Assembly: GCA_002402995.1 (NCBI GenBank)
Contig: DHGX01000003.1
Location: 3,765-67,764, forward strand
DNA from: Patescibacteria group bacterium UBA4787
GTDB taxonomy: Bacteria > Patescibacteriota > Patescibacteriia > UBA2591 > UBA4787
Reading direction: 5' to 3'
DNA length: 64,000 nt
Made by a program: the position numbers and the translations under genes. The notes beneath the pieces are model-generated. The model saw only the letters and a list, made by a program, of their open reading frames with translations, ran no database searches and was not told the origin of the DNA. This document shows positions 2,396 through 56,109 of the stretch, in pieces (the first letter of the stretch is position 1; each line of letters begins with the position of its first letter).

Positions 2396-5300
2396 GTGAC
2401 CACATATAAACAAAAAATTATTTATGTCTTTTGCCTGCTTTTATGCTTGCCAAATTTTGTTTTGGCTGGCGTTAGCCAAAATGATACCACGGGCGTTTAT
2501 GCGAATACTTTAAGCGACTACACGGGTATAAGCCGGACCAGCAATTTGCGTTTGGATAATGGTAAAATTGCCTTGAGTCAAAATACCAATCATCAATATC
2601 AAGAAGATTTTACCACCGCGGTATATGGCGCTAGTTCCACCGCGCTCTGGGACATTGCGAACCATCGATTATCTTTGAAGTCAAAAAATATTTTTGTGGC
2701 GAAAAATGGACTGGACGCCAATTCAGGCACGGAAGACGCGCCTTTTTTGACCGTGGCCAAGGCGTTGGCAGTGGTTCAGCCGGGCGACACGATCTATGTG
2801 AAAAAAGGGATTTATTATGTAAGCTCATATTTCACGAGCATCGTGGGCACAGCCGACGCGCCTATTACGATTATGCCGTACCCAGGAGATCGTTACCAAG
2901 TTATTTTTGACGGCGAAGGTGTTTCTCTCTACAGTTTTGGCTACTCCTCTTTGCGATACCTGACCATTGACGGTTTCATTTTCCGCAATTATCCCGATGG
3001 CCCGATTTTAGGCGGTCCCTACACATGCGACCACAATATTTATAAAAATAGTATAGTTTACGGCATTCTCCATACCGGCGAGGATATAAATTGCTCTTAC
3101 AATAAAATTATTAATAATTTATATATTGGCGGGCAACAACAGCTTTATTTGCCTAACGCTACAAATAACGCCGCTATTTTGAATAATAGTTTTTTGAAAT
3201 ATTCCAGAGACACAGCTATTTACGCTCCAACTGCTGGTACTGCTGATCACGCGATAAAAAACAACATTTTCTATACCATGGGCAATTACGGGGTTGACGA
3301 TCCCGGTCATTATTTTATTAGTTATCAAAATGGCGGCATTTCCAGTATTGATAATAATCTATATTATAACCCTTTTTCCAATTCTTATTTGTTTCATTAC
3401 AACCACGGCGCTGGCGCAGTATACTATTCCAACAATAGCGCTGATTTTTCCACTTGGCAGGGTTATGGTTTTGACGCGCATTCTTTGATCAATCAAGATC
3501 CAATGTTCACCCCGGGAGACCTCGGTTTGTATTATCTGGCCGCAAACAGCCCGGCCATTGACGCTGGCGCTAATGATTCAGATGTTTCCTATTTAACTGA
3601 CGGCAATTGGTGCACTTCATCTACTAACACGCCTGACACAGGCACCGTGGACATGGGTTTCCATTATTTCTGCGGCACAGCTGAAGCTGTGGCCAATCGT
3701 TATCCCTCTTCTGGGGAAGCGCTTTCTAATGAGATAAACAGCAATGATTTTTCAACAAAAAATGTCAGTAAAGCTACTCTAACCGCTACTTATGATCTCA
3801 ACGGTTTAGCCGCGAGCAATCTGGTATTTTATCTTTCGGCAGATAGCGGCGCCAATTGGGAAGAAGTTACTTCTGGCGTTGAACATACTTTTACTAATAC
3901 TGGCACAAGCTTATATTGGAAAGCTGTTTTAACTACCAACGACGAAACTAAAACGCCCGTGGTCACGCAAATAGTCGTAGATTATACCTACGCGACAACT
4001 CCTGTAACTTCAGCCCAAGAATCTTTTACCGATGATTTTGTGACTCCCTCTTTCCAAAGCGGGACTGAGGGATGGGGAGGTAATGAGACTTTTGGCGATG
4101 GTTCAGGCTTGAGGTTAACATCTACTACCGACTATTGGACTTGGCCTTTACGCAGCAGTGGATCATATACGGTGGGTGGCGTAAATTTAGGCACCGTGCT
4201 TTCACTGCCAGATTCAAACACCTACACCCCTGCCGTGGTTTTAGACAAACAAAACCATCCAGCGGTTTTATTCAAGGTCTACGAAGGCGATCTCGACACC
4301 TATAATCTGTTCTTCGCGCGTTGGAACGGCGCGAACTGGGTTAAAGCCGATGGCGTTGCTGGTTATGATCAAATATTAGCCACTAGCACCTATCAAATCA
4401 CAGAATATAAATTATTGTTTGACACCCAGAATCGCCCATATGTGGCTTTCGCGAGAAAAGAGGCAGACGCAATTCATACTAATGCCTATTTTTCATATTT
4501 TAACGGCACAGCTTGGACCACGGCTCAAAAAATCAGCGGCTCGCCGTCTGATTGGGGTTGGTATCTCGATTTCGCCATAGATGCTAACAACCGGCCTTGC
4601 GTGGTTTTTTCCGGCTACATTGACGCTACTGACTATGAAGATATTTATTTGACTTGTTTAAATAACGGGACCTGGACTTACGCTGATAACACCACTCCTG
4701 GTTTGGAAAATGTCAGCCAAGTTAACCACGCCAGTTATCCAGAATCTGCCACTATTATTTTTGACAATAACAATCGACCGATGGTTGCCTGGACAGACCA
4801 CACTTCAAACCAAGTAGCTTTCACGCGTTGGAACGGCGCAACCTGGACTTACGCTGATAACACCACCCCCGGCATTGAATATTTTGCTAACGCGACTGCT
4901 GACGGAAACGCGCGATTGGCGATTGACGGCTCGGACCACCCGATTTTGGTATGGAGGAACTACACCGTTACAACGGGAGGGAGTTGTGGTTTTAAAAAAT
5001 ATTATAAAACTACGACGACGAATATTTATTTGAATTATTGGAACGGCACAGCCTGGAAAGCTATGAACGGAGTTGATGATGGCCCGGAAACAATACATTC
5101 AAGAACAGCGACCGCCTGCAACTCTACATTACCCGTTAATTTTAAAATGCTTTTAGACTCTAATTTTAGGCCGAATTTTGCGTTTAGCGATTGTGCTTAT
5201 GATCCTGATACTGGCTGGAAGAACGCATTTTTATTTAGCAAATGGAATGGTTCAATGTGGACAGAAGCTGATGGGGCAACGCCTTTTGATTATAATAATT

Positions 5301-8300
5301 ATAATGTCCTTTTTAATGCACATCCTTCATATTTTGTTCTTGATCAAAACAATTATCCCAATTTAATTTTAAGCAACACGTCTTTCACCGCTTGGAACGG
5401 CACAGCGTGGGCTAACCTTATTAACGAAGCCAATACCAGCACAAATCTCGGCGATAATACGGTCACGGGTTTTTTAGTGGACAATGATGATAATCTTTTT
5501 GTTTTTAATTCTTCAAATGTAATCGCCACCTCATATCAAGGTGCTCCAGCCATAGTCGAGTATAACACCCCTGGGCACTATAACGCCAATTACACACCTA
5601 CCGGGCTTTCAACTGATTATACTTATGTGGTGGAAAGTGTTACCATGACCAGCTTAACAACCGATCTTCACGGCTTGGCTGCTTCAAGTTTAAGTTATCA
5701 GGTGCGTTGTTCCAATACAGGCGACTGGGAAACGGTTGCCTTGAACGAACAAAAGACTTTAATTTGCACAAACAATTTGTTTAACTACAAGGCCAATTTA
5801 AGCACCGCTGACCCAAACCAAACTCCAGAAATCAAAAACATCACCTGGCAAATCACCTATAGAGCTATTGACAACGAGGCTGCGGCTAACACGCTTTATG
5901 ACCATAACGACGTTTTGAGCAGTTCCACCACCTTTACTATTGATTCGGCCGCGGCGGTTTATGACGCCACGAACCAGAGGATTAAATTTAATCCTACGCC
6001 TTGGCGGGATTTAGTTAATGAAGCTTATGATCCTACTTATTTAAGCGCCACAGAAACTGGCTTTATGGATAACCCCCAGATCATCACTGACAGCAATAAC
6101 CGTTTGTGCGCAGTTTGGCGCGAAGGCGTTTTCAACAAAGGCGACATTTATTACTCCTGCTGGAGCGGCGCGGCTTGGGTGAAAGCAGACGGCACGACTG
6201 GTTATGATAACGTGAGCAACAATACCGGCGACTCTGATTTTCCTAGGCTGCTTTTGGACAACAATAATTATCCTTACGTGGTTTGGCAGGACAGCACCGA
6301 TAGTCATGCTTCGAGTACGGCCAATTACGACATTTTTTTTAAGTACTATGACGGTTCAACTTGGCGTGGTTTGAAAAACGCCGCGACCCATGACAATTTA
6401 TCGCAAAATCTCGGGCCTTCGTATTATCCGGAATTTGTTTTAGATAGCGTTAACCATTATCCGCAAGTTATCTGGCAGGACAGAAGCGAAGGCTTATGGA
6501 AAATTTATTACACCAAATGGAACGGCGTTGATTGGGTGAAAACCAACGGTGATTCTGGTTACGAGTCGCCCACAGGCCCAGTGATTTCATATCATGACAG
6601 TTTTGAGCGCAAACCGCCGATTCATCAATACGGCAAGATAAAGCTCAATAGCAATAACCAGCCGAATATTTTGTGGCAAGGATATTTTAACGAAGCCGGC
6701 GCCAGTCACACCAAGTCCCAAATATATTTTACCTATTACAATGGTTCAGCTTGGGCAGGCTTGGAAAACGCTTCTTCCACGCGCGATAATGTTAGTAATA
6801 CCACGAGCAGTGACTGGAACATGCAACCCAATCCTGATTTTGCCATTGACAGCAGCAACCGTGTTTACGCGGCTTGGATTGATAATTATCCTGATGTGTA
6901 TGGTGATGGATTTTATTTCAAATATTTTGATGGCAGCAATTGGGTGGGTTTGGCCAGCGCCACTTCCCAGCCGGATTGGATTTTTGATTTTATGCCTGAT
7001 CTTGCGAGCGGCAGTGACGACTACATTTATCATTACACCCAAGTAGAATTAGACAGTCAAAGCCGTCCTCACATCTTGGCTATGAAAACCACGGGTTGGT
7101 CTGTCAACAGAAATAATTGTTATACTTATTGGAACGGTTCGCAGTGGTCAAAAATTGACGGGGTAACAGGCGGTTATGATTCATTTGGCACCGGCGAACA
7201 AGCAGAATTTGTTTTAAAAGATGATTTTCCTTGGGTGATATATAAAACCGATCGAGCAGTTAAATTTGTGAAGGGTACGGCTTCTGGTTTTGAATCAGCG
7301 CAAGGGGTTTCACACCAAACGGTTAACCAAGCCTCAAGCGTTTACCCCGTGATTGCCAAAGCCGGTAACGGCGATATGTACGGAGCTTGGGTGGAGGGTA
7401 GGACCACCGGCCAAGGCAGCCGCTTGGCAATAAAAAAACATAGCGCTTCGTCCACAACCGAACAAACCGCCACGATTATTTCCACCGCAGCTAATTTAAC
7501 GTCATCGGGATACCGATATATCACCTCAGCCACTTTAACCGCCTCAGCCACGCTTAACAACGGAACCATCGTTTATTATTTATCCGCAGACAATGGCGCG
7601 CATTGGGAAGGCCCGATTACTTCCGAGGTGGAGCATATTTTTACCAATACTGGTCGAGTCTTAAAATGGAAAGCTGTTTTAACTGGCGATGGAGTTAATA
7701 AGCTGCCGGAAATTGACGCGATTACTGTGGCTTATAACATCAGCGATTATGCTTCCAGCGGTTATCTTATCTCTAAATTAGTTCAGCCCGCGGAGATCGG
7801 TTCATGGGACAGGGTTGTGGTTAGTCAAACTTTGAACGGCGGTACAGTCAGTTATCAGATTTTAGATAAAAATGGTAACTTAGTGCCTGACAGCGAACTC
7901 ACTGGCAACAGCGCGGGCTTAACTCCAATTGACAGTGAATTAAATATTGCTTCTATAAACGCTTCTAACACCAATTATTCTTCCTTATATATCAAGGCAA
8001 CCGTAAATTCGGCCAACTCAGTTTCTACTCCCACGATTACCAGCTTGAACGCTAAATGGATCAAAGCTAAGGCCGGTAACGATGTAGTTAGTAATGGCGC
8101 TGCTTCTTTTGACGCCACATCGTCAATTGGCGAAGTCTATACTTGCGCTTGGGATTTTGATTCATCGGACGGCGTTGATTGGAATAATCCTGATTCTAAC
8201 TCCTGTCAGGTCGACTATGACTATACCCCCAAAGGCGGCGGTTCTTACACGGCCACTTTAAGAATCAAGCAAGGAACTGCCACGGCTTATGATTATGACA

Positions 8301-10321
8301 CCAGAGTGGTGGCGGTTACCGTGGGCAGCGGTGGCAGCACGCCCACTCCTCCGCCTGCTGAAACTCCTGTTCCAACTACTATTTCTTTATCGCTTAATCC
8401 GTCTTCGCTTTTCGCTGATGCCATTAGCCAAAGCGCGTTGACCGCTGAAGTCTTTGACCAGTTCAATAATCATGTGGCTAACAACACGCCTATCGCCTGG
8501 GATATTGTTTCTGGCAGCGGCTCTTTGGCTTCTGCTTCTACTCCAACCACGAATGGTTTGGCTTCTAACACCTACACAGCCGGCGCTCAAGCAGGCGACA
8601 TTGTCATTAAGGCCTGTACCGCTAATCTCAAATGCAATGAAAAGACATTAACCTTGAAAGCGATTGAAGGACCCTCGGTTTTAACCAGTTTAACCATTTC
8701 CCCTAAAACTCTTTCTTTAAAAAAAGGGCAAACCGCGCAATTCTCCGCGATTGCCAAGGATCAATATAATAATACTTTAACCGGTTTGGTTTTAGAATGG
8801 CTAACCAGTAATTCGTCTCTCGGCCTGATCAATTCCAGTGGCCTTTTTCAGGCTTTGGCTAAAGGCATAGTAACGATTACCGCGAAAAGCGCTGGTCTTT
8901 CTGATCAAGCCGCGGTTACTGTCACTGATACTGACGAGCCAGAGATAATTCTGCCTGTTTCACCTACGCCCGAACCGCCAACAGTTCCAATTACGCCAAC
9001 TCCGACACCCGGAACAACGCCTACGCCTATCCCAACGACACCAGGTGTGGGTACTATTACTACTCCATCGACTGGCGGGTCTGCCTCGCCAAGTCAAGGC
9101 GGGCCAGAAACAGGAATTGGCGTTGGCGCGGAAGCGCCAAGTGAAAATATTCCTATTGTTCAGTTGCCGTCGGTCTTTGAAGAGAAAATAGCTCAACTTG
9201 ACATAGTTTTTGAAAAAGCCAAAGAAATTTATCAAACTAAAATTTTAGAGAATAAAACCGTTCAAAAAGTTAATCAGCAAGCGGCTTTGCCGGTTATCGC
9301 GGTTGTTTCAGCGCTTAACGTGGCAGCCAGTGTTCCAGCCGCGGCTTCGACCCTGCCATTACTCCAATATCTTTTTCAGCTTCTCAAATTCTTTTTCACT
9401 CAACCGGCTTATCTTTTCGTCAGACGACGCAAGTCTTGGGGCACGGTCTATGATGCCATTACCAAACAGCCTGTTGGTTTAGCGATGGTTAGGCTTTACG
9501 AGTTGGTGCCGTCTTTAACCGAACAAGGATCAATCAAGAAATTGGTTCAAACCAAAGTAACCGGGCCGGATGGCCGTTATTTCTTTGCGGTTAAACCAAA
9601 GACCGATTATCAGCTCGAAGTTAATAGTGTCGATTATAATTTTCCTTCAAAATATCTTAACCAACAGCCCAGTGACCGTCTTTATCAAAATTTATATTAT
9701 GGCTCGGTTTTTCGTTCAGGGGCCGAGGGATTGATAAATTTCAATTTGCCTCTTGATTTGCAAGAGGGTAAAACGAGCATCGCCGGCTCAACCAAAAAAG
9801 TTAAGTCGTCATTTGCCAATTTAGAGGAATTTTTCAAGGCTCCGGCAGATGAAAAAGAAAAAGCTTATCACCAAGTTAAGCGTCAAGCCAATTTGAGAAA
9901 ATTGGCTCAAGGAATTTCTTATCTTTCGCCGAGCTTGGCTCTGGTTAATTTAATTATTTCACCCAACGCGCTAACTCTGGTTTTCCTTTTTGTTCATTTA
10001 ATTTTACTTTTTATCTTCAGGTTTTTTAACCCAAATGTTCTAATTAAGTCATTGGGCAGAACCTTCAATCTCAATACCCAAGAGCCGGTAGGCCAGACCT
10101 TAGTTTACTTATTTGAACCCCAATTTAACAAACTCGTTCAAACTCAGATTGCCGACACCAGGGGGAAATACGGTTTCTTGATCGGAGATGAAAAATATTA
10201 TTTGGTCGCTCAAAAACCCGGCTATGTTTTTCCTCAAGACAAAATGGAAATTGTCGGTCAAGCCGAGAGCATGGTGAAGAAAGATTTAGGGATGAAGCGG
10301 AGTCAGCAGAAAACTTCATAA
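2396..10321 (+). CDS. Giant secreted multidomain surface protein (2641 aa). Signal peptide; right-handed beta-helix (pectate-lyase-like) region; 13x ~65-aa WNGxxW repeats; FN3/PKD-like modules; 3 Big_2 Ig-like domains; Pro/Thr-rich linker; C-terminal membrane anchor with 2 CarboxypepD_reg-like domains
   Basis: Single 7.9-kb ORF with GTG start. N-terminal hydrophobic signal (…CLLLCLPNFVLAG). NNxF/NNIFY beta-helix rungs. Repeated D..NRP.V.W…WNG..W blocks. PKD-like WIKAKAGNDV…CAWDFD…GVDWNNPDSNSCQ. Big_2-like LTSLTISPKTLSLKKGQTAQF. PTPEPPTVPITPTPTPG linker. C-terminal TM, RRRKSWGTVYD…GPDGRYFF, TM, QTQIADTRGKYGFLIG…KPGYVFP. Confidence 0.8.
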   Translation: MTTYKQKIIYVFCLLLCLPNFVLAGVSQNDTTGVYANTLSDYTGISRTSNLRLDNGKIALSQNTNHQYQEDFTTAVYGASSTALWDIANHRLSLKSKNIFVAKNGLDANSGTEDAPFLTVAKALAVVQPGDTIYVKKGIYYVSSYFTSIVGTADAPITIMPYPGDRYQVIFDGEGVSLYSFGYSSLRYLTIDGFIFRNYPDGPILGGPYTCDHNIYKNSIVYGILHTGEDINCSYNKIINNLYIGGQQQLYLPNATNNAAILNNSFLKYSRDTAIYAPTAGTADHAIKNNIFYTMGNYGVDDPGHYFISYQNGGISSIDNNLYYNPFSNSYLFHYNHGAGAVYYSNNSADFSTWQGYGFDAHSLINQDPMFTPGDLGLYYLAANSPAIDAGANDSDVSYLTDGNWCTSSTNTPDTGTVDMGFHYFCGTAEAVANRYPSSGEALSNEINSNDFSTKNVSKATLTATYDLNGLAASNLVFYLSADSGANWEEVTSGVEHTFTNTGTSLYWKAVLTTNDETKTPVVTQIVVDYTYATTPVTSAQESFTDDFVTPSFQSGTEGWGGNETFGDGSGLRLTSTTDYWTWPLRSSGSYTVGGVNLGTVLSLPDSNTYTPAVVLDKQNHPAVLFKVYEGDLDTYNLFFARWNGANWVKADGVAGYDQILATSTYQITEYKLLFDTQNRPYVAFARKEADAIHTNAYFSYFNGTAWTTAQKISGSPSDWGWYLDFAIDANNRPCVVFSGYIDATDYEDIYLTCLNNGTWTYADNTTPGLENVSQVNHASYPESATIIFDNNNRPMVAWTDHTSNQVAFTRWNGATWTYADNTTPGIEYFANATADGNARLAIDGSDHPILVWRNYTVTTGGSCGFKKYYKTTTTNIYLNYWNGTAWKAMNGVDDGPETIHSRTATACNSTLPVNFKMLLDSNFRPNFAFSDCAYDPDTGWKNAFLFSKWNGSMWTEADGATPFDYNNYNVLFNAHPSYFVLDQNNYPNLILSNTSFTAWNGTAWANLINEANTSTNLGDNTVTGFLVDNDDNLFVFNSSNVIATSYQGAPAIVEYNTPGHYNANYTPTGLSTDYTYVVESVTMTSLTTDLHGLAASSLSYQVRCSNTGDWETVALNEQKTLICTNNLFNYKANLSTADPNQTPEIKNITWQITYRAIDNEAAANTLYDHNDVLSSSTTFTIDSAAAVYDATNQRIKFNPTPWRDLVNEAYDPTYLSATETGFMDNPQIITDSNNRLCAVWREGVFNKGDIYYSCWSGAAWVKADGTTGYDNVSNNTGDSDFPRLLLDNNNYPYVVWQDSTDSHASSTANYDIFFKYYDGSTWRGLKNAATHDNLSQNLGPSYYPEFVLDSVNHYPQVIWQDRSEGLWKIYYTKWNGVDWVKTNGDSGYESPTGPVISYHDSFERKPPIHQYGKIKLNSNNQPNILWQGYFNEAGASHTKSQIYFTYYNGSAWAGLENASSTRDNVSNTTSSDWNMQPNPDFAIDSSNRVYAAWIDNYPDVYGDGFYFKYFDGSNWVGLASATSQPDWIFDFMPDLASGSDDYIYHYTQVELDSQSRPHILAMKTTGWSVNRNNCYTYWNGSQWSKIDGVTGGYDSFGTGEQAEFVLKDDFPWVIYKTDRAVKFVKGTASGFESAQGVSHQTVNQASSVYPVIAKAGNGDMYGAWVEGRTTGQGSRLAIKKHSASSTTEQTATIISTAANLTSSGYRYITSATLTASATLNNGTIVYYLSADNGAHWEGPITSEVEHIFTNTGRVLKWKAVLTGDGVNKLPEIDAITVAYNISDYASSGYLISKLVQPAEIGSWDRVVVSQTLNGGTVSYQILDKNGNLVPDSELTGNSAGLTPIDSELNIASINASNTNYSSLYIKATVNSANSVSTPTITSLNAKWIKAKAGNDVVSNGAASFDATSSIGEVYTCAWDFDSSDGVDWNNPDSNSCQVDYDYTPKGGGSYTATLRIKQGTATAYDYDTRVVAVTVGSGGSTPTPPPAETPVPTTISLSLNPSSLFADAISQSALTAEVFDQFNNHVANNTPIAWDIVSGSGSLASASTPTTNGLASNTYTAGAQAGDIVIKACTANLKCNEKTLTLKAIEGPSVLTSLTISPKTLSLKKGQTAQFSAIAKDQYNNTLTGLVLEWLTSNSSLGLINSSGLFQALAKGIVTITAKSAGLSDQAAVTVTDTDEPEIILPVSPTPEPPTVPITPTPTPGTTPTPIPTTPGVGTITTPSTGGSASPSQGGPETGIGVGAEAPSENIPIVQLPSVFEEKIAQLDIVFEKAKEIYQTKILENKTVQKVNQQAALPVIAVVSALNVAASVPAAASTLPLLQYLFQLLKFFFTQPAYLFVRRRKSWGTVYDAITKQPVGLAMVRLYELVPSLTEQGSIKKLVQTKVTGPDGRYFFAVKPKTDYQLEVNSVDYNFPSKYLNQQPSDRLYQNLYYGSVFRSGAEGLINFNLPLDLQEGKTSIAGSTKKVKSSFANLEEFFKAPADEKEKAYHQVKRQANLRKLAQGISYLSPSLALVNLIISPNALTLVFLFVHLILLFIFRFFNPNVLIKSLGRTFNLNTQEPVGQTLVYLFEPQFNKLVQTQIADTRGKYGFLIGDEKYYLVAQKPGYVFPQDKMEIVGQAESMVKKDLGMKRSQQKTS
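4310..7150 (+). repeat. Array of 13 tandem ~65-aa WNG-x-x-W protein repeats (coding repeat) inside giant gene 1
   Basis: Recurring (F/Y)x(R/K/Y)WNG(A/T/S)xW…ADG(T/V)xGYD blocks, each preceded by (L/I)DxxN(R/H/Y)Px(V/I)xW. Near-identical 27-nt DNA stretch acctggacttacgctgataacaccac at ~4664 and ~4845 shows a recent unit duplication. Confidence 0.7.
7500..8340 (+). repeat. Module shared with giant gene 2 (FN3-like + beta-sandwich + PKD-like), paralogous to ~11800-12620
   Basis: Protein-level collinear similarity: YYLSADNGAHWEG…WKAVLTG vs YQMSADGGSHWEN…WKTVLTT; WIKAKAGNDVVSNGAASFDATSS…GVDWNNPDSNSCQ…RIKQGTATAYDYDT in both. Confidence 0.7.
9290..10318 (+). repeat. C-terminal anchor module (TM - CarboxypepD_reg-like - 2 TM - CarboxypepD_reg-like) paralogous to 13900-14914 in giant gene 2
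   Basis: RRRKSWGTVYD…TGPDGRYFF and …QTQIAD..G.YGFLIG..KYYLVA.KPGYVFPQDKMEIVGQ…KKDLGMK are conserved between the two giants (~65-90% aa identity over the module). Confidence 0.75.
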
Positions 10322-10534
10322 TTCAAAGAATTTGGACAAAACTGTCTGAAACATTTTTATAAATCGCCGGAATTTTTATCGAAGGGAGATGTTTTGGTTT
10401 TGTCCAACGACTTCGTTTACAAGATAGGAGAAACGATTAAATAAATTGACAGGCGTTGCTCACAGTGATATTCTTAGGATAGATACGCGGAAATTTGACT
10501 ATTGAGTTTTCTATATTTTATAACAATTTCTGAT

Positions 10535-13500
10535 ATGAAAAATTTTGGCCAAAAAATTTCAAAGAATTCGAAATTTTTGTGGTTATTGTTTATAGCAATT
10601 ATATTATCGCCTAATTTTGTTTTGGCGGCTCCCGCGCAAGACAATTCGCGCGGAACTTTTTACGACGACTTTACGAATATCGGCGGCGTTGCCTTGAGCG
10701 CGAATACCGAAGTAGACGTCGCGCATAATTGGATCGGCTTAAAGCCAGACGAACAAGGTGATTATCCGCTTTCCAGCACTTTTGATTTCACTGAAGATTT
10801 TTCCACTAATAATTTTAAGGATACAACTGATTCAATAGACATTGATTGGAATATTAATAATCGGAAATTAAAACTTTTTAAAGAGAATGATTGGACAAAC
10901 CCCGTTTCTATACCAGAAACTTATTTAGGCGGATTGGGCGTTGATACTAATACCAACAAGTTGTACGCTGGCACGGCCGCTAATCGGGAAATTTACGAAT
11001 TACAAGACGCGAGTTTTCAAAAAATGACTGGTCCATGGAACGATGGATGGTTTTATTCTTTTTCATCGTATCAAAATAAATTATACGCCAGCGGAAATAA
11101 TGGAGATTGGAGTACGAGCGACGGGATTTATGTTTACGATGGTTCTTCTTGGTCAATTTCTTCCGGCTCGCCCACAGAAGGATCTGGCAATTCAGCTATG
11201 GCCATGGCTGTTTATGACAATAAACTTTATCTTGGAACGCGCAATGATTTTAATTACGCCAAAGTTTTTTCTTTTGATGGCGCTTCTTGGCAAGACACGA
11301 ATGTCACCAGCACTCAAATAGCGTTTATTTCTTTAGTGGTTTACAATAACAAACTTTACGCCGGTTCGTCTAACGACTCAGGTTGGACAAATCCCGAGGT
11401 CTTTGTTTATGATGGCAATGCATGGAATTTATCAACTCAATGTCCAGACGCTTCTAGTGGAGCGGCACACTTGGTCGTCCACGACAACAAGCTTTATGCG
11501 TCCTGTGAGAATCCGTCTTATGGCAGTCGAATGTTTGTTTACGACGGCGATACTTGGTCAGCAATGGCAAACATAGATTATCGCGTTTATCAATTAATTT
11601 CCTACGATAACAAACTTTACGCCGCTACTTCCAACGGACTTTACGTTTTTGACAATAATTCGTGGGACTTAGAATATCCCGGTTCTGTCGGGGCATTAGC
11701 GGTTTATAATAATCGGCTTTATCTCGGTCTCGGCAATACTGCTAATATTGTTTCTATTGGCACAAATTTTAGTTATTCATCTTCCGGCGTCGCGGTTTCT
11801 CTAAAAATTAATGGCAACGCGTCTGGCGTTCAGTCAGCCAAAATTAGCCCGACCCAGATTCTAAATGGTCAAACCATTAATTATCAAATGTCAGCTGATG
11901 GCGGCAGTCATTGGGAAAATGTTACCCCAGGTTTAGAGCATATTTTTATCCACCCGGGCGATGATTTAAGATGGAAAACGGTTTTAACCACTTCAAACAT
12001 TAGTGCTTCGCCAGAAATTACCAATTTAGAAATTCAATATCAGGCAACTGCTTCCTCGGTCACTTCAATTTCTATCACTCCTTCAGAAGTCGGCTCTTGG
12101 GATAAAATCATTTTTAATCATACTTTAAATGACCAGGCCATTACTTATCAGATTTTGGACTCTTCGGACGCTTTAATACCTGATTCAGTTTTGCCGGGTA
12201 ACGCCGCGGGTTTTTCCGCTAGCGGTACTTCTATGACGATTGATTTGTATGCGCTTCCAAGCGCGACTTATCCGTCCATTAAAATTAAAGCGAATTTGCT
12301 CGCCAGTTGCAATCTTTATACCCCAACCATCAATTCCTGGAAAACTTACTGGATTAAAGCCAAAGCTGGCGATGATATCGCGTCCGGAGGCTCCGCTTCT
12401 TTTGACGCCACTTCTTCTGTTGGTGATAGCTACACCTGTGCCTGGGATTTTGACGTTTCTGATGGCGTTGATTGGAACAATCCTGATTCCAATTCTTGCC
12501 AACCCATTTATGATTATCGTTCCAATAAAGGAGGCGGCATTTACACCGCCTCTCTTAGGATTAAACAAGGAACTGCCACGGCTTATGATTATGACACTAA
12601 GGTCGTCACGGTTAATTTAGGTAGTAGTAGTGACGAAGAAAGCCCTAAATATTTAAATTTCTCCGCTAACCGCCGTATTTTATTGGCTGATTCCCCGAAT
12701 CAGAGCATAATTAGCGCTCAAGTTTTAAACAAAAATAAAAAAGCTGTACTCGACGGGACTACGATTGTATGGAGTCTTCTTTGCCCGAATCTAACCACGG
12801 ACTTCAAAGATCTTGCCTGTGGAACATTATCTAACAATCAAAGTTTGACGGCAAATGGCGCGGTTTCTACAATTTTTACGCCGGGACAATTAGCTGGTTC
12901 AATAATAGTAAGGGGTTGCGCGATCAACGGTGTCTGCGCCGAACAAGCCATCAAGGTGGCTCTTAAGCAGCGCGGAAAAATAATTTTGAAATCTAATTAT
13001 TCTATTTTGCCGGCTGACGGAAAGTCCAGAATAAAAATTTACGTTAAGGTATATGACCGTTATTTGAATCCTTGGTCAAATGTTGTTATTTCTTTAAAAT
13101 TGATTAGTTTAGGCGCGGATCAAAAAGAAATCAAATTCACAGGTGAACTGTCGTCAACAGAGATAAAAACAGACAATAACGGCGAAGCGCTTGTCTATTA
13201 TTCGCCGGGCGAACAAATCGGAAAAATAAAAATTAAAGCTAATATAGAAAGCAATCAATCGTTGAGCGGGTTCAGGGTTTTGAATAAACTGGCTTATTTT
13301 TTAAAATACCTCACGCCTTCTTTTTTAAAATCAACCGCCAGCCATTTTTTTAATTTTGTAATGGCGGCCACGGCCCCAAAAATTTACGCCCCATATCCAA
13401 TTCAACCCGTGCCCATAATTGAGCCCCTTCCGCTTCCGGAAGAAGAAATTCCAGAAGAAGAAATTGTTTTGCCGCCAAATGACGAAGAAGTGGTCGGAGA

Positions 13501-14917
13501 ACTTGACCTTGATTTAGTTGATTCAGAATTAATGACCACGATTGTTGAAGATGAACCTCAGCCATTAGTTCAACCTCCAGATCCATCTGCTCCTACGCCA
13601 CTTTCCGAACAGTCAGGATCCCAAATAGGTGTTCCTAGTGAGAGTTATTCATCAGCGCCGCCGCCGTTACCGGTATATCTTCGCGCTCCAGTTTCGATTC
13701 CTTCAGCAGAAGCCGCGCCGACTATTATTGAAATTCATTATCCCGAGACAAAAGCGGCAGAGACGGCCAGTGATCCGTCTGGCTTTACGGAAATAATTGA
13801 GAAAACAACCGATTTGACACAAAACACAATAAGCGCGGCAACCGTGATCGTTAAAAAAATTCACACAAATCCGACGGTTCAAACTGTTAATCAAGTCGTA
13901 GCGCCAACAGTCTCGGCTGTAACCGTTGCGGCTGTGGCCGCTTCCGGCGCGGCTTCAAGCGCCACCGCCGTTCCTTTATTCAATATGGCTGTTCTTTTAT
14001 TCACCCAGCCTTCGTATCTTTTGACTCGGAGAAGGAAATCATGGGGCACGGTTTATGACTCCCTGTCCAAAGAACCAGTCTCTTTGGCTATAATTCGTCT
14101 TTATGAAATAATTTCGCAAGCTAATGAACAAAATAAAACTAAGAAACTTATCCAAACCCGAGTAACAAGCGCGGACGGACGTTATTTCTTTTTAGTCAAA
14201 CCATATACTAATTATCAAATTGAAGTTGTTTGTAATGGTTATAAATTCCCCAGCCATATTCTGAAAGCAGGCGTTCAAGAAACCATTTATACGGATGTCT
14301 ATTACGGCGAAGTTTTTAATTCTAACGATAATACTATAATTAATCCGAATTTGCCGCTTGATTCGCAGGAGGGGAAAGTTTCTTTGGTCGGTTTTAACAA
14401 AAAAATTAAAACTATTTTTGCCGATTTAGAGCAGTTTCTAAAAGCGCCAATTAATGCAAAAGAAAAAGAATACCGAAGAATCAAAAAAGAGGCCTTGACC
14501 AAAAAGGCGCTTAGGTTTCTTGCTTATCTCGCGCCTATTTTAGGCTTTATTAATTTATTAATTTCACCCAATAAATGGACATCATTATTATTCATTTTGC
14601 AGTTATTAATGCTTTTGGTTTTCCGGTATTTTATTGAGAAGATTTTGCCATATAAACAACATCTAGGGCGCGTTTTTGATATTGACACCAATAAGAATAT
14701 CGGACAATCTTTGATTTATCTTTTTGAGCCGCAATTCGGGAAATTAATTCAAACGCAAATTGCCGACAATGACGGACTCTACGGATTTTTAATCGGCAAT
14801 CAGAAGTATTATTTAGTCGCCGAAAAACCCGGCTATGTTTTTCCCCAAGACAAGATGGAAATTGTCGGTCAGGTCGAAGGCATAGCTAAAAAAGATTTAG
14901 GTATGAAAAAAATCTAG
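10535..14917 (+). CDS. Giant secreted surface protein 2 (paralog of giant 1). Signal peptide; Kelch-like beta-propeller repeats; FN3/PKD-like shared module; Big_1-like Ig domains; acidic/Pro-rich linker; same C-terminal TM + 2x CarboxypepD_reg-like anchor
   Basis: ATG at 10535 (MKNFGQ…; track ORF begins at an upstream TTG, 10502). Signal …LLFIAIILSPNFVLAAPA echoes giant 1. Repeats YDNKLYAGT…VYDG..W (x7). Shared PKD module. EPLPLPEEEIPEEEIVLPP linker. C-terminal module as in giant 1. Confidence 0.8.
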   Translation: MKNFGQKISKNSKFLWLLFIAIILSPNFVLAAPAQDNSRGTFYDDFTNIGGVALSANTEVDVAHNWIGLKPDEQGDYPLSSTFDFTEDFSTNNFKDTTDSIDIDWNINNRKLKLFKENDWTNPVSIPETYLGGLGVDTNTNKLYAGTAANREIYELQDASFQKMTGPWNDGWFYSFSSYQNKLYASGNNGDWSTSDGIYVYDGSSWSISSGSPTEGSGNSAMAMAVYDNKLYLGTRNDFNYAKVFSFDGASWQDTNVTSTQIAFISLVVYNNKLYAGSSNDSGWTNPEVFVYDGNAWNLSTQCPDASSGAAHLVVHDNKLYASCENPSYGSRMFVYDGDTWSAMANIDYRVYQLISYDNKLYAATSNGLYVFDNNSWDLEYPGSVGALAVYNNRLYLGLGNTANIVSIGTNFSYSSSGVAVSLKINGNASGVQSAKISPTQILNGQTINYQMSADGGSHWENVTPGLEHIFIHPGDDLRWKTVLTTSNISASPEITNLEIQYQATASSVTSISITPSEVGSWDKIIFNHTLNDQAITYQILDSSDALIPDSVLPGNAAGFSASGTSMTIDLYALPSATYPSIKIKANLLASCNLYTPTINSWKTYWIKAKAGDDIASGGSASFDATSSVGDSYTCAWDFDVSDGVDWNNPDSNSCQPIYDYRSNKGGGIYTASLRIKQGTATAYDYDTKVVTVNLGSSSDEESPKYLNFSANRRILLADSPNQSIISAQVLNKNKKAVLDGTTIVWSLLCPNLTTDFKDLACGTLSNNQSLTANGAVSTIFTPGQLAGSIIVRGCAINGVCAEQAIKVALKQRGKIILKSNYSILPADGKSRIKIYVKVYDRYLNPWSNVVISLKLISLGADQKEIKFTGELSSTEIKTDNNGEALVYYSPGEQIGKIKIKANIESNQSLSGFRVLNKLAYFLKYLTPSFLKSTASHFFNFVMAATAPKIYAPYPIQPVPIIEPLPLPEEEIPEEEIVLPPNDEEVVGELDLDLVDSELMTTIVEDEPQPLVQPPDPSAPTPLSEQSGSQIGVPSESYSSAPPPLPVYLRAPVSIPSAEAAPTIIEIHYPETKAAETASDPSGFTEIIEKTTDLTQNTISAATVIVKKIHTNPTVQTVNQVVAPTVSAVTVAAVAASGAASSATAVPLFNMAVLLFTQPSYLLTRRRKSWGTVYDSLSKEPVSLAIIRLYEIISQANEQNKTKKLIQTRVTSADGRYFFLVKPYTNYQIEVVCNGYKFPSHILKAGVQETIYTDVYYGEVFNSNDNTIINPNLPLDSQEGKVSLVGFNKKIKTIFADLEQFLKAPINAKEKEYRRIKKEALTKKALRFLAYLAPILGFINLLISPNKWTSLLFILQLLMLLVFRYFIEKILPYKQHLGRVFDIDTNKNIGQSLIYLFEPQFGKLIQTQIADNDGLYGFLIGNQKYYLVAEKPGYVFPQDKMEIVGQVEGIAKKDLGMKKI

Positions 14918-22676: not shown

Positions 22677-22705
22677 TTATTTTGTGCTATAATTAATTTA
22701 TTATG

Positions 22706-23019
22706 CCCCGTAATACAACTTCCAGAATGTTCTTCTTTATTTATGTTCTCCAAAGCCTTTCAAAGACAAGAAATTATATATCGGCTATACTAACAATCTC
22801 AAGCAACGAATCAAAGAACATCAAAGGGGCAGATTTTTTTCAACCAAATTCAGATTGCCTTTTCAGCTTATTTATTTCGAGGGCGGTCTTGACGAAAATG
22901 ACGCCAAGCGCCGCGAAGGTTATCTAAAAACCACCCAAGGACGTCGATTCCTTGGTCTAAGATTAATCCAGTACCAACGTCTTAAAAAGGCGCTTGCGGC
23001 TGGAAGATGATATACGGGG
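22706..23019 (+). mobile_element. GIY-YIG mini-element, family 1, full-length copy. Bounded by imperfect TIRs CCCCGTAATACAACTTC / GAAGATGATATACGGGG and flanked by TATG on both sides
   Basis: The same 17-20-nt terminal motifs recur at 44858-44998 (+) and 49359-49621 (-). The right end abuts the ATG of the downstream ymdB-like gene (…ACGGGGT-ATG). Confidence 0.6.
22727..23010 (+). pseudogene. GIY-YIG nuclease superfamily protein (YhbQ/UPF0213-like, ~95 aa) interrupted by a -1 frameshift in an A3 run (~22771-22773)
   Basis: Frame 1 gives MFFFIYVLQSLSKTRN. Frame 3 continues LYIGYTNNLKQRIKEHQRGRFFSTKFRLPFQLIYFEGGLDENDAKRREGYLK… One extra A restores a contiguous GIY-YIG domain. Confidence 0.65.
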
Positions 23020-23020
23020 T

Positions 23021-23815
23021 ATGCGAATATTGTTTTTCGGCGACATTATGGGCGGTTTGGGCCGCGCGGCTGTAAAAAAAATTATACCACAATATAAAAA
23101 ACGGTATAAACCTGATTTGATTTTGGCAAATGGAGAAAACTTGGCCCACTTAAAAGGTATGACACCTAAAACTGTTAAAGAAGTTTTGGATTCGGGTATT
23201 GATTATCTGACTAACGGAAATCATTTTTTTGGCAGAAAAGAAATTATAGAAGTAGTTAACAAAAAAATGCCAATTATCAGGCCAGCGAATTATCCAGAAG
23301 ATACTCCGGGCCAAGGATATGTGATCATAAAAAAAGACAAGCAAAATATTTTGTTAATCAATCTGCTGGGCCGGGTTTTTTTAAGACCCGTCCTTGATTG
23401 CCCTTTTCGCAAAGCAGAAGAGATTTTAAAAAAAACTAAAGCGAATCTAAAGAAAAATATCATTATCGTTGATTTTCACGCAGAGGCGACTTCGGAGAAG
23501 GCGGCTTTCGGTTATTGGCTAGACGGCAAGGTTTCCGCGGTGGTTGGCACTCATACACACGTACCAACAGCCGATAATAAGATTCTATCCAAAGGCACGG
23601 CTTATGTCACTGATATCGGAATGGTTGGCGCTAGCGATTCGATTATCGGAGCCGCTAAAGAAGGTATTATTCGATCATATCTAACACAAATACCAGAACC
23701 TTTGATTTCACCTCAAGAAGGGCAAGCGACTATCAACGCGGTTTTAATTGAGATAGACGACAAAAGTCATTTATCTAAAAAGATTATTCGTTGCGACGAA
23801 GAAGTATTAATCTAA
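23021..23815 (+). CDS. ymdB: YmdB-like 2',3'-cyclic-nucleotide phosphodiesterase (TIGR00282 metallophosphoesterase)
   Basis: [15 protein letters not shown]…[15 protein letters not shown]…NGNHFF…; ATG at 23021 (track ORF starts at an upstream in-frame TTG). Confidence 0.8.
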
Positions 23816-28264: not shown

Positions 28265-29275
28265 ATGTTTAGAAAATATTTTTTTATTTTATATATTTTT
28301 CTTGTTTTTTTGCTCGTCATTGTGTATTATAGATGGCAGGCGTATGTTCTTTTACACGAAGATTTTGAATTGAAACAAATTAATATTACGCGAGGAGAAT
28401 CAGCGAGTAATGTTATTCAGCAACTCAAAAACCAGAAAATAATTGAAAGCGAACTCGGCTTTAAAATTTATGTTTATCTAAGGAATCGCACGAATCTTTT
28501 TCAGTCGGGTCAATATTATCTTAGTCCGACCATGAGCTGGAAAGAAATTCTTAATCTTCTAACATCAAAACAAGCCAACGAGCAAACTATAGTTGTTCGC
28601 GAAGGATGGACGCAGAGGGAAATAGCCGATTATTTAGAAAAATCAGGACTATTTTCTCAACAGAATTTTATAGCCACTTCTTATCAGCTCGGGTCTTCGG
28701 GTGTTTTGGACTATAGTTTTTTATCAGACAAACCGAGCAATCACTCTTTAGAGGGCTATCTTTTCCCTGATACTTATCGAGTTTATCGCGACGCTAAACC
28801 AGAAACGATCATTAAGAAGATGTTGGACAATTTCAATGATAGGCTTGATTCAGATATAAGAGAAGAAATTGTTCGTCAACATAAAAGTATTTTTGAGGTT
28901 TTAATTATAGCCTCTATTGTTGAGAAAGAGGCTGCCAGTGAAACCGACAGACAACTTGTGGCTGACATATTTTTAAGGCGTTTAGAAAATCGCATGCCGC
29001 TACAATCTTGCGCAACTATAAATTATATTTTAACTCAAAAGACAAAACATCTTAGTCTAGAACAAACGAAAATAGACTCGCCATACAATACTTACAAATA
29101 CTATGGCTTGCCGCCCGGACCGATTGGAAATCCAGGCATAAGTTCAATTAAAGCTGTTCTGTGGCCCGCAAAAAATAATTATTGGTATTTCCTTTCAACT
29201 GACAATAGCCAAATTATTTATAGCAAAACGAATAAAGAGCACGACCTTAATAAAGAAAAATATTTACCCCGTTAG
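28265..29275 (+). CDS. mltG: Endolytic murein transglycosylase MltG/YceG family
   Basis: N-terminal TM; …EGYLFPDTYRV…; …YNTYKYYGLPPGPIGNPG…. The last 3 codons and the TAG stop lie inside a MITE copy. Confidence 0.8.
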   Translation: MFRKYFFILYIFLVFLLVIVYYRWQAYVLLHEDFELKQINITRGESASNVIQQLKNQKIIESELGFKIYVYLRNRTNLFQSGQYYLSPTMSWKEILNLLTSKQANEQTIVVREGWTQREIADYLEKSGLFSQQNFIATSYQLGSSGVLDYSFLSDKPSNHSLEGYLFPDTYRVYRDAKPETIIKKMLDNFNDRLDSDIREEIVRQHKSIFEVLIIASIVEKEAASETDRQLVADIFLRRLENRMPLQSCATINYILTQKTKHLSLEQTKIDSPYNTYKYYGLPPGPIGNPGISSIKAVLWPAKNNYWYFLSTDNSQIIYSKTNKEHDLNKEKYLPR

Positions 29276-29376
29276 AGATTCAGCCGACATTATTTTTATA
29301 GAGAATATTTCGAGCGATAGCGCCTTACGGCTCGCGTCCAACTATCACGCCGTTCGGTCTTAAATCTCTAACGGGG
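29267..29376 (+). mobile_element. 110-bp MITE-like element, copy 1 (14-bp TIR CCCCGTTAGAGATT / AATCTCTAACGGGG; flanked by TTTA)
   Basis: Near-identical ends and central GCC-TTACGGCTC core shared with the copies at 41013-41122 and 49431-49540. Supplies the stop codon of mltG (…TTACCCCGTTAG). Confidence 0.7.
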
Positions 29377-49354: not shown

Positions 49355-49358
49355 GATG

Positions 49359-49621
49359 CTTTGGCAAACCCCGTATATCATCTTCGATATTTTTAATAAT
49401 TTTTTAGGTCTTAGTAAGTATTTATGTTTACCCCGTTAGAGATTCAGCCGAGACTATCTTTTGTCGCCCAACTAAGGCAAAGCCGCCTCACGGCTCTTGT
49501 CAATCTCCTAAATATATTTAATTTTAAATCTCTAACGGGGTTTATCAATCTAACTAACAAAATTCTCCCGGGTCTTTTTTGGGCCGATGATAGTCGGCCC
49601 AGTCGAAGTTGTATTACGGGG
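49359..49621 (-). mobile_element. GIY-YIG family-1 element, ORF-less derivative on the minus strand, carrying a nested MITE insertion
   Basis: Reverse-complement termini cgCCCCGTAATACAACTTC … GAAGATGATATACGGGGtttg. Interior matches the 44858-44998 copy except for the 110-bp MITE + TAAA duplication at the TTTATAAA site. Confidence 0.6.
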
Positions 49622-55228: not shown

Positions 55229-55377
55229 CCCCTCACTTGGAAACAATAAACTCGTTTGGCGTTCTCAGTCTTTTGCAAGCCAGAGTAGTAATTTATGAAA
55301 ATTGGAATTTAAAATAAAAAATAAAATATATTTAACAATAACCCGCTTTTTGAAATACATCGTTTACAAGCGAGGGG
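55229..55377 (+). mobile_element. GIY-YIG family-2 element remnant (ORF deleted), TIRs CCCCTCACTTGG / CAAGCGAGGGG
   Basis: Terminal motifs and subterminal …tttttgaaatacatcgtttacaagcgagggg match the ends of the 42394-42681 copy. Confidence 0.5.
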
Positions 55378-55938: not shown

Positions 55939-55972
55939 CCCCTCACTTGAAGAAAATACCCCCAAGTGAGTG
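55939..55972 (+). repeat. Solo family-2 TIR hairpin (CCCCTCACTTGAAGAAAATACCCCCAAGTGAGTG) between tRNA-Leu and tRNA-Ile
   Basis: Left TIR intact, right TIR degenerate; no interior. Confidence 0.45.
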
Positions 55973-56034
55973 AAATATTTTTTATCGTACATTTAATTGT
56001 ATTAAAAAGTTTTTTTTGATCTTTTTTAGGTGAG

Positions 56035-56109
56035 GGGCACGTAGTTCAGTGGCAGAACGCATTCCTGATAAGAATGAGGTTGAAGGTTCGATTCCTTCCG
56101 TGCCCACCA
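56035..56109 (+). tRNA. tRNA-Ile (anticodon GAT), CCA encoded
   Basis: GGGCACG/GTTC…GAAC/CATTC-CTGATAA-GAATG/GAAGG-TTCGATT-CCTTC/CGTGCCC-ACCA. Confidence 0.85.

Follow-up and report, generated by a model that had tools for sequence, protein, structure and literature searches.

The 64,000-nucleotide stretch of contig DHGX01000003.1 from Patescibacteria group bacterium UBA4787, hereafter called the window, carries at positions 22706-23019 a 314-bp element, designated A1, that is inserted exactly on the start codon of the gene ymdB. We consider it likely that A1 is a recent, now frameshifted copy of a miniature mobile family that is common in Patescibacteria and that moves by a mechanism based on its own GIY-YIG nuclease. 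The evidence for mobility comes from the comparison of insertion and absence states between related genomes, and is complemented by target duplications that vary with the locus, by covariation between the two ends and by the distribution of the family over unrelated host genes.

Element A1 at the start codon of ymdB

The gene upstream of the element, rny, ends at 22676, and the sequence then runs through ...GTGCTATAATTAATTTATTATG into A1 and out of it through TATGCGAATA... into ymdB. A1 begins with CCCCGTAATACAACTTC and ends with GAAGATGATATACGGGG, with the tetranucleotide TATG standing directly on either side (22702-22705 and 23020-23023; Table 1). The ends form an inverted match at 13 of 17 positions, and the right-hand TATG supplies the ATG of ymdB, both as proposed in an original prediction made from this sequence; the match extends to arms of 20 nt (22706-22725 and 23000-23019). 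Each of the terminal 17-mers occurs three times in the window, where 0.1-0.2 occurrences would be expected (0 of 100 shuffles), and all occurrences are paired.

The only open reading frame (ORF) in A1 is that of a GIY-YIG nuclease, and no DDE, serine, tyrosine or HUH transposase is encoded. Its TGA lies inside the right arm, 9 nt ahead of the element end, and the captured host ATG at 22703 is a possible start of the same ORF (MPRNTTSR...). The broken frame had been ascribed to the loss of one nucleotide in a run of A; this did not hold, as an intact copy (L168), 91.6% identical to A1 and lying at an unrelated locus, where TATG flanks it left and right, places the lesion at 22758-22760, where two nucleotides have been inserted (AGCC[TT]TCAAAGAC). 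With TT removed, the A1 protein aligns gap-free to its homologues. A promoter scan upstream of the element returned TCGCCA-16-TATAAT (score 10/12, TG present). A transcript from this -10 box would be nearly leaderless, and the promoter would now serve the nuclease ORF first.

Empty sites and recent movement

The rny-ymdB junction was found without the element in a metagenomic relative (L081), whose YmdB is 94% identical and whose DNA is 88-92% identical to that of the window. Here, the junction reads ...TTTATTATGCGAATATTG... and ...GTGCTATAATAGTTTATTATGCGAATATTG..., has one TATG and retains the same -10 box; the alignment to the window ends at 22706 and restarts at 23020, and the overlap between both parts is the tetranucleotide itself. 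A second relative (L171; about 90% DNA identity) is empty at the positions of three further elements of the window, namely A2 and A3, which carry the ends of A1, and C2, which belongs to another type. At the A2 site its glycosyltransferase gene begins ...AACATCATGATCGAT with a single CATG, and at the A3 site its murJ gene begins ATGCCTTGGCATAAGATAAAAAC, where the window has ATGCTTTGGCAAA, the antisense element and then CGTAAAATAAAAAC. Four elements (A1, A2, A3 and C2) are therefore polymorphic for presence and absence between genomes that are about 90% identical in DNA, and the comparison of occupied with empty sites suggested in the original prediction could be made for all three A copies. 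A1 is a recent insertion.

Other, independent assemblies of this organism (100% identity) end inside A1 and inside A3 and the B-type element B3 nested in it, the kind of break that repeats cause. Look-ups with the L34 and L19 proteins of the window returned the same organism only, again at 100% identity and with contigs broken within elements, and yielded no empty sites.

Anatomy, targets and host genes across Patescibacteria

A genome scan covering one genome per species yielded 403 confirmed relatives, from which 80 loci were fetched; start-codon, stop and duplication counts below refer to 61 main-type copies, the arm alignment to 59 and host proteins to 57. The fetched loci come from Portnoy-, Doudna-, Yanofsky-, Roizman-, Levyi-, Niyogi-, Azam-, Magasanikii-, Sungii- and Jorgensenbacteria and others, and several copies per genome, each at a different gene, are common among them. 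Nearly all loci can be written as [T]ATG, CCCNGTAATACAACTTCCAGT ... ACTGGAAGT TGA TATACNGGG, [T]ATG-host gene. The autonomous copy measures about 309-315 bp and contains one single-domain GIY-YIG gene of 93-101 codons, while its outer ~21 nt constitute an interrupted inverted repeat. The arms fall into sequence types that follow the nuclease subfamily (GTAATAC, GTAGTAG and GTACTAC); subfamilies outside the main type, with GTAGTAG/CTACTAC arms, have a 2x2 mismatch at similar depth.

In 60 of the 61 copies, the right end of the element is 0-2 nt away from the start codon of a same-strand ORF of 52 codons or more, and in 56 the nuclease stop stands 9 nt ahead of that end. In several copies an internal start codon is lacking, so that translation must begin at that of the host. 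The duplicated sequence is TATG in 38 copies, ATG in 10 and ATGA in three, with TGTG, TGAA, TGGA, TGCAA and TGC found once each. Flanks are specific to the locus, CTTG being a further variant, and left and right change together, so they are true duplications of the target rather than something that the element brings with it. A model in the manner of IS608, with an element-borne right TATG, was rejected on the same ground, as the right flank follows the left at ATGA, TGAA, TGTG, TGGA, TGCAA and CTTG.

The termini were found as 65 paired sets in about 786 kb of Patescibacteria loci; "solo" matches to a terminus in these loci were loose chance matches or ends cut off by a contig edge only. What the termini enclose is either a GIY-YIG ORF or a short stretch of non-coding DNA. 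The expectation that the termini always pair was borne out (three of three in the window), and with empty sites found and a duplication that varies with the locus, the interpretation of A1 as a mobile element came through each of the tests that the original prediction had set for it (pairing, GIY-YIG or core content, empty sites). The comparisons document insertion and absence rather than cut-and-paste movement.

Host genes are unrelated to one another (97 Pfam families in 57 proteins) and include essential genes, among them those for tRNA synthetases, NAD-dependent DNA ligase and thymidylate kinase, which must stay expressed while carrying an element. As only about 22 of the 410 TATG sites on both strands of the window are gene starts, the placement of 60 of 61 copies at start codons is a strong enrichment. 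In the window, 22 of the 34 ATG-start genes that were checked have a T directly before the ATG, TATG being the commonest start-codon context in this genome. The bias most likely results from a preference for TATG as target combined with selection, because it is at start codons only that an insertion allows the nuclease to be expressed while leaving the host gene unharmed. Landings elsewhere are represented by A3 (antisense, in murJ), by nested insertions at CTTG and by a tandem pair (L059) that has its middle TATG in common, as expected if the regenerated target gets struck again. Insertion may also be actively linked to DNA that is melted at promoters or gene starts, A1 lying 9 nt after an extended -10 box. 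A -10-like box was seen upstream of 21 of 60 targets and a Shine-Dalgarno-like motif upstream of eight of 60, counts that lack a control set and from which nothing is inferred.

Pairing of the two ends

The arms of the 59 copies were aligned, and two helices of 7 and 11 bp (18 stem pairs), separated by a 3x3 loop, were imposed on them. The stem has 7 bp, an ATA/ATA 3x3 internal loop that is invariant in 59 of 59 copies, and then 10-11 bp. Over the 18 stem pairs, 94.5% of cells are paired, and double-sided changes occur at 12 pairs (73 cells). None of 500 column shuffles reached the observed pairing or covariation, and sliding the register by 1-3 columns lowered pairing to 18-46%. In the outer helix, CCCAGT/ACTGGG alternates with CCCCGT/ACGGGG and CCCGGT/ACCGGG, and further covarying arms read CAACTTCC/GGAAGTTG, CAACCTCC/GGAGGTTG and CAGCTTCC/GGAAGCTG. 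Because a protein-binding site in double-stranded DNA would keep its sequence rather than complementarity at free positions, the alignment implies that the arms must pair at some stage. Non-Watson-Crick stem cells comprise three G-T and six A-C, with no G-T excess, which, together with the derivatives in both orientations described below, weakly suggests that pairing takes place in DNA rather than in a sense RNA. Rfam at gathering thresholds identified five tRNAs only in the whole window, and permissive scans of A1 and A2 gave no match.

The nuclease

The repaired A1 protein matches PF01541 only (E = 3e-14, residues 3-73 of 94), which agrees with the prediction that the sole ORF of the element is a GIY-YIG domain; no HUH domain was found in it with Pfam. 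An AF2 model shows the GIY-YIG core followed by a C-terminal helix. The best solved relatives are the UPF0213 protein BH0048 (1zg2) and Slx1, with 1zg2 as the best PDB sequence match (E = 1.6e-4, 25 bits; Foldseek 32% identity, TM 0.48), and by sequence the nuclease and the YhbQ/UPF0213 proteins can be placed in a common superfamily. The group I intron endonuclease model TIGR01453 of NCBIfam gave a weak match (E ~5e-4, 20 bits vs a cutoff of 56).

Exact-protein look-ups with P0001 and with the YmdB of the window returned no matches. Homologues of the repaired protein number 602 at about 70% identity, all from Patescibacteria, and a profile search of 1.84 billion cluster representatives retrieved 2,129 clusters at E <= 1e-10. 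Many homologues are annotated as proteins of 101 aa starting with MP(S/R)NTTSS, and 13 of 20 sampled ones are annotated from the captured ATG (MP[S/R/G]NT[T/I]S...). The MP(S/R)NTTSS N-terminus is nothing but the flanking ATG and the left arm in translation.

Non-coding derivatives

The window contains nine units with CCCC...GGGG ends, three each of types A, B and C (Table 1). Non-coding derivatives of the family measure 62-253 bp and keep the arms alone. A1, A2 and A3 have only their 17-nt ends in common, and the interiors of A2 and A3 are mutually related non-coding DNA. A2 occupies the start codon of a gene for a family-2 glycosyltransferase. A3 interrupts murJ behind its fourth codon, in antisense orientation; the target was CATA, which reads TATG on the strand of the element, and the two duplicate copies have decayed to CAAA and CGTA by one substitution each. 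A2 and A3 also provide an internal filled/empty pair for the nested B element (GATTTATAAACATAAAT vs GATTGATAAA[B]TAAACATAAAT). The B-type elements are members of the same superfamily of CCCC...GGGG-ended units as type A. The C-type nuclease gene, C1, is frameshifted by an additional A in a run of A (seven instead of six).

In other genomes, derivatives of 134, 129 and 218 bp were found, all at TATG, as well as derivatives of 62 and 74 bp (L048 and L063) that are nested antisense within a nuclease ORF and flanked by a CTTG duplication; together with A3, the latter two establish that derivatives occur in both orientations. In two genomes (L019 and L055), the arm variants of the derivatives are those of the resident nuclease copy. 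Short derivatives fold into closed hairpins. A2, A3 and the B and C minis have the features of miniature inverted-repeat transposable elements (MITEs), being short, non-coding and polymorphic, with a duplication and with the terminal inverted repeats (TIRs) of the autonomous copy. Without an ORF of their own, these derivatives depend on functions supplied in trans. A stand-alone hairpin of 32 nt in L171 (6490-6521; CCCAGTAGTAGAAACTGCGTTTCACTACGGGG) consists of GTAGTAG-type arms only and could be the smallest derivative or a footprint.

Several insertions in the window alter the genes around them. The original ATG of murJ (49357) now runs into a TAG within the nested B element (window 49357-49640), and MurJ, which in a relative starts with MPWHKIKTLL, must start at an in-frame ATG inside the antisense A3 (ORF 49424-51202, about 70 extra residues) or at a later TTG. 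The B element at 29267-29376 lies near the end of the yceG/mltG ORF (28265-29275), two codons ahead of its stop, and brings a new in-frame stop (TAG in CCCCGTTAG), so that the protein ends in ...LPR and not in ...LR. B2 and its 4-bp duplication add exactly 38 codons to the gene of the CCA-adding enzyme, all open in frame (TPLEIQSRY...KSLTGF), and divide the PolyA_pol head domain into two Pfam stretches. C1 starts 5 nt past the stop of the same gene.

At the C2 site, TTGACT, the -35 box of rplS, directly follows both in the window and in L171 (12780-12810), while the left flanks differ (GGTTCTTTAAATTA vs GGTCTCT) without a clean duplication. The TTGAC that follows C1 and C2 had been considered as part of the element; this was rejected, since TTGACT stands at the empty site of the relative as the host -35 box. 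The 99-bp C element has the first 10 nt of tRNA-Ile (GGGCACGTAG) repeated on its left, its terminal GGG are also the first bases of the tRNA, and the 7 nt CACGTAG flank the unit, a duplication longer than that of type A.

Table 1. Coordinates of the elements and associated features in the window
Feature	Position	Strand	Description
Element A1	22706-23019	+	314 bp; CCCCGTAATACAACTTC ... GAAGATGATATACGGGG; frameshifted GIY-YIG copy
Host -10 box	22688-22693	+	TATAAT, extended TGcTATAAT; 9 nt upstream of left ATG
Left target duplication	22702-22705	+	TATG; ATG 22703 is the captured host start codon
Left arm	22706-22725	+	CCCCGTA-ATA-CAACTTCCAG; helix 1, invariant ATA, helix 2
GIY-YIG nuclease ORF, pseudogene	22728-23010	+	internal ATG 22728; TGA 23008-23010
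Right arm	23000-23019	+	CTGGAAGATG-ATA-TACGGGG; carries nuclease stop codon
Right target duplication	23020-23023	+	TATG; ATG 23021-23023 is the ymdB start codon
Host gene ymdB	23021-23815	+	PF13277, 264 codons; insertion target
B-type hairpin	29267-29376	.	110 bp, CCCCGTTAGAGATT...AATCTCTAACGGGG; TTTA duplication
B2, B-type	41013-41122	.	110 bp; TTTA duplication; in frame in CCA-adding-enzyme ORF 40742-42388
C1, C-type GIY-YIG gene	42394-42681	+	perfect 21-nt inverted repeats AACCCCTCACTTGAAAAAGAT; 53% identical to A1
A2, non-coding	44858-44998	+	141 bp; same 17-nt termini; TATG at 44854-44857 and 44999-45002
A3, non-coding	49369-49621	-	253 bp; same 17-nt termini; nested B element 49431-49540
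C2, C-type non-coding	55229-55377	+	149 bp; just upstream of rplS promoter; empty in L171
C-type non-coding	55939-56037	+	99 bp; abuts 5' end of tRNA-Ile (56035-56109)
Assembly breaks	22887, 22995, 49535, 49592		starts of L161, L162, L164 and L165, respectively

Relationship to known systems

The closest described arrangement is that of the Ssn proteins, single-domain GIY-YIG nucleases of about 94 aa, each of which binds its cognate hairpin (NTS/SRM) and cleaves single-stranded DNA on the 5' side, a few nucleotides away (Chenal et al., Nat Commun 2025, PMC11893778). Cleavage persists when the hairpin halves are on separate oligonucleotides, and Ssn genes are flanked by inverted hairpin copies, a layout that the authors remark resembles an insertion sequence (IS), with mobility hypothesised only; their genome set consisted of RefSeq representatives and did not include Patescibacteria (PMC11893778). 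A tblastn search of plasmids gave three matches, two of which are canonical Ssn loci (Rhizobium WP_020920629.1 and a locus of Aeromonas caviae, each between CGTCAT...hairpin...ATCCAK repeats) and were used as comparators. Homology to these two proteins is detectable, the Patescibacteria profile matching them at 35-37% identity with an hhalign probability of 96.9. As in Ssn loci, a single-domain gene of about 94 aa lies between inverted cognate repeats and the genome holds extra repeat copies without a gene; at the Aeromonas locus, the stop codon even falls within the right repeat, as it does here. In contrast, each Ssn repeat is a self-contained hairpin of 20-50 nt, whereas the ends of the present elements are halves of one long-range stem with an ATA/ATA loop, and no duplication of the target, placement on start codons, polymorphism with empty sites or derivatives reduced to a hairpin have been reported for Ssn. 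Interpretation of the termini as SRM repeats was rejected, the published Ssn motif being absent from them. Compared with a GIY-YIG (Ssn-like) gene between inverted repeats, the present family has different ends and an unusual target strategy, and adds clear evidence of transposition.

Other systems share single features with the family. IS200/IS605 elements, PATEs and REP/RAYT are similarly tiny, recognise ends through folded single-stranded DNA, use a tetranucleotide target and have non-autonomous hairpin derivatives. However, they rely on a Y1 HUH transposase with covalent intermediates and on subterminal hairpins at each end, with neither TIRs nor duplication, whereas here the nuclease is a hydrolytic GIY-YIG enzyme, the ends pair with each other and a locus-dependent duplication of 3-5 bp is made. 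The attC sites of integrons are imperfect inverted repeats that work through folding of one strand, with unpaired bases marking strand and orientation and a stem free to covary, but they follow the cassette ORF instead of enclosing it, are used by a tyrosine integrase at attI, and involve no duplication and no nuclease gene. A GIY-YIG catalytic fold within selfish elements is also known from the homing endonucleases I-TevI and Seg/Mob and from Penelope-like elements; these have additional DNA-binding or reverse-transcriptase domains, employ long sites or target-primed reverse transcription, and have neither TIRs nor non-coding derivatives.

Rickettsia palindromic elements, Neisseria Correia/NIME repeats and bacterial MITEs resemble the derivatives in being palindromic repeats of 60-250 bp with short duplications, and some of them lie in frame within genes, as B2 does in the CCA-adding enzyme. 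Their mobilising enzyme is usually unknown or of the DDE type, whereas the derivatives described here have the exact termini of a resident nuclease copy. When compared with classical TIR elements, the family has the TIRs and the locus-variable target duplication and lacks the DDE, serine, tyrosine or HUH transposase. The literature search yielded no description of these elements in Patescibacteria, nor of their ends, their duplication or their start-codon habit; the original suggestion of an undescribed family can be upheld to this extent, whereas a GIY-YIG gene between inverted hairpin repeats was already known (PMC11893778). A 2024 survey reported GIY-YIG ORFs in non-intron insertions of the rRNA genes of Patescibacteria (candidate phyla radiation, CPR), "outside the context of homing" (PMC11270868), and these insertions are possibly the same kind of element.

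Proposed mechanism and alternative explanations

We propose that, in a single-stranded state, the two arms would pair into the stem, and that the nuclease would recognise this stem and its asymmetric ATA/ATA loop, by analogy with Ssn, and nick in the flanking TG-containing tetranucleotide. As GIY-YIG enzymes are hydrolytic, joining must be achieved by something else, and host ligase and repair may complete excision or insertion. Insertion takes place at (T)ATG, with duplication of 3-4 bp and rarely 5. The nuclease would then be translated either from the captured host ATG, using the host promoter and ribosome-binding signals, or from an internal ATG or GTG, and the host gene by reinitiation at the ATG 9 nt past the nuclease TGA. 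Non-coding derivatives would use the same machinery in trans. It is tempting to speculate that the family represents the smallest class of autonomous DNA transposons, a start-codon specialist of about 310 bp with a hydrolytic single-strand nuclease of about 95 aa that acts on its own folded ends, cuts at TATG and leaves ligation to the host; we put this forward tentatively, at somewhat less than an even chance.

A number of observations weigh against mobilisation by the nuclease as outlined here. Neither an excision product nor a circle junction was observed, the evidence being that of sequences, and GIY-YIG enzymes are incapable of strand transfer. Both nuclease genes in the window (A1 and C1) are frameshifted, and therefore these copies cannot move themselves. 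The flanking duplication, although centred on TG, varies in length (3-5 bp, mostly 3-4, rarely 5), and none was found at C1 and C2; C-type insertion may work differently or remove a few bases. Covariation alone does not separate a DNA hairpin from an RNA stem, and the start-codon placement may reflect active targeting or selection after insertion. As for the kinship with Ssn, identity to these proteins (35-37%), taken as a proxy for membership of the CDD clade cd10448, is no higher than to UPF0213 BH0048 (32%). The SRM motif HGTCWYN(0-2)YYVSBRHN(0-5)WNVSBRGN(0-2)RNCYNB has no match in the 64-kb window and five in 779 kb of Patescibacteria loci, and the same expression matches two to five times around each bona fide Ssn gene.

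As an alternative, the units could be passive TIR elements (IS or MITE) that owe their movement to a transposase or recombinase with its gene elsewhere, the GIY-YIG gene being cargo, for instance a selfish or addiction gene. A hydrolytic GIY-YIG enzyme cannot join DNA, DDE transposition has TIRs with a short duplication as its hallmark, derivatives that lack an ORF move all the same, and the insertions in the window are young although both of its nuclease genes are pseudogenes. We nevertheless judge this explanation unlikely. The overlap of ORF and arms, with the stop in the right arm and the left arm readable as N-terminus, is kept in essentially all copies across phyla; arm sequence differs by nuclease subfamily, and in derivatives the arms are of the variant seen in the nuclease copy resident alongside them. 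Selection on protein-binding sites in double-stranded DNA does not predict the covariation of the stem, and no transposase is found among the 25 of 55 matched Pfam families listed for 29 large ORFs of the window.

Less probable still, the elements could be an Ssn-like hairpin system that has been domesticated, or a device acting on RNA, with stems that mainly serve the host or the transcript and a mobility that is ancient or incidental; such a system might modulate recombination or transformation, or let RNase III excise the insert from mRNA or rRNA at the duplex. Ssn and NTS of Neisseria have been interpreted in this manner, and a duplex stem of 20 bp does lie at the start of host genes; moreover, a stem cleavable by RNase III would render the GIY-YIG insertions in CPR rRNA genes (PMC11270868) harmless. 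Polymorphism of four elements at about 90% DNA identity indicates recent movement instead, different genes are occupied in every genome, and derivatives in both orientations, the absence of G-U enrichment and the absence of an Rfam match do not favour a function in RNA. A role in RNA could coexist with mobility.

That the nuclease is a free-standing homing endonuclease gene, spread by cutting the empty allele followed by homologous recombination, seems very improbable. The fold, the TIGR01453 match (far below cutoff) and the intergenic position next to a conserved gene are in line with homing, but the protein (94-101 aa) is a single domain with no DNA-binding domain, the target is 3-4 bp long, and target duplication, stem-forming ends and non-coding derivatives are alien to homing; the diversity of insertion sites among unrelated host genes (57 proteins, 97 Pfam families) already contradicts it. 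Finally, constant placement at gene starts and a stable stem could recall a structured 5' leader or cis-regulatory RNA of ymdB and other genes, an explanation with practically no remaining probability, as it is refuted by orthologues in close relatives that lack the element entirely with precise junctions, and as the arms enclose a protein gene in one copy and, in others, non-coding DNA unrelated to it, with no Rfam match.

Other features of the window

Two very large ORFs (2641 and 1471 aa; window 2396-14917) have long diverged internal repeats (D1-D5, D10) in common and probably encode surface proteins rich in repeats. About 60 nt downstream of the 3' half of tRNA-Ser (46470-46558), the opposite strand holds a diverged and incomplete inverted copy of this half (46518-46547 / 46604-46633), which may be the remnant of an integration or rearrangement.

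Implications

If the nuclease is the mobiliser, the family would set a new lower size bound for an autonomous mobile element and would add a fifth chemistry, GIY-YIG hydrolysis with joining by the host, to prokaryotic transposition. Ssn-type nucleases gain a concrete selfish-element context, and the remark that their loci look like an IS becomes testable with defined ends, a defined target and pairs of donor and empty sites. Nucleases specific for a stem plus a tetranucleotide in single-stranded DNA could also serve as tools. For the genomics of Patescibacteria, the elements break assemblies and mislead gene callers, which report the MPSNTTSS N-terminus of the nuclease and false extensions of host genes. 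The start-codon strategy, in which the ATG is duplicated, the nuclease stop is placed 9 nt upstream and even essential hosts are tolerated, is that of an unusually clean harm-minimising parasite.

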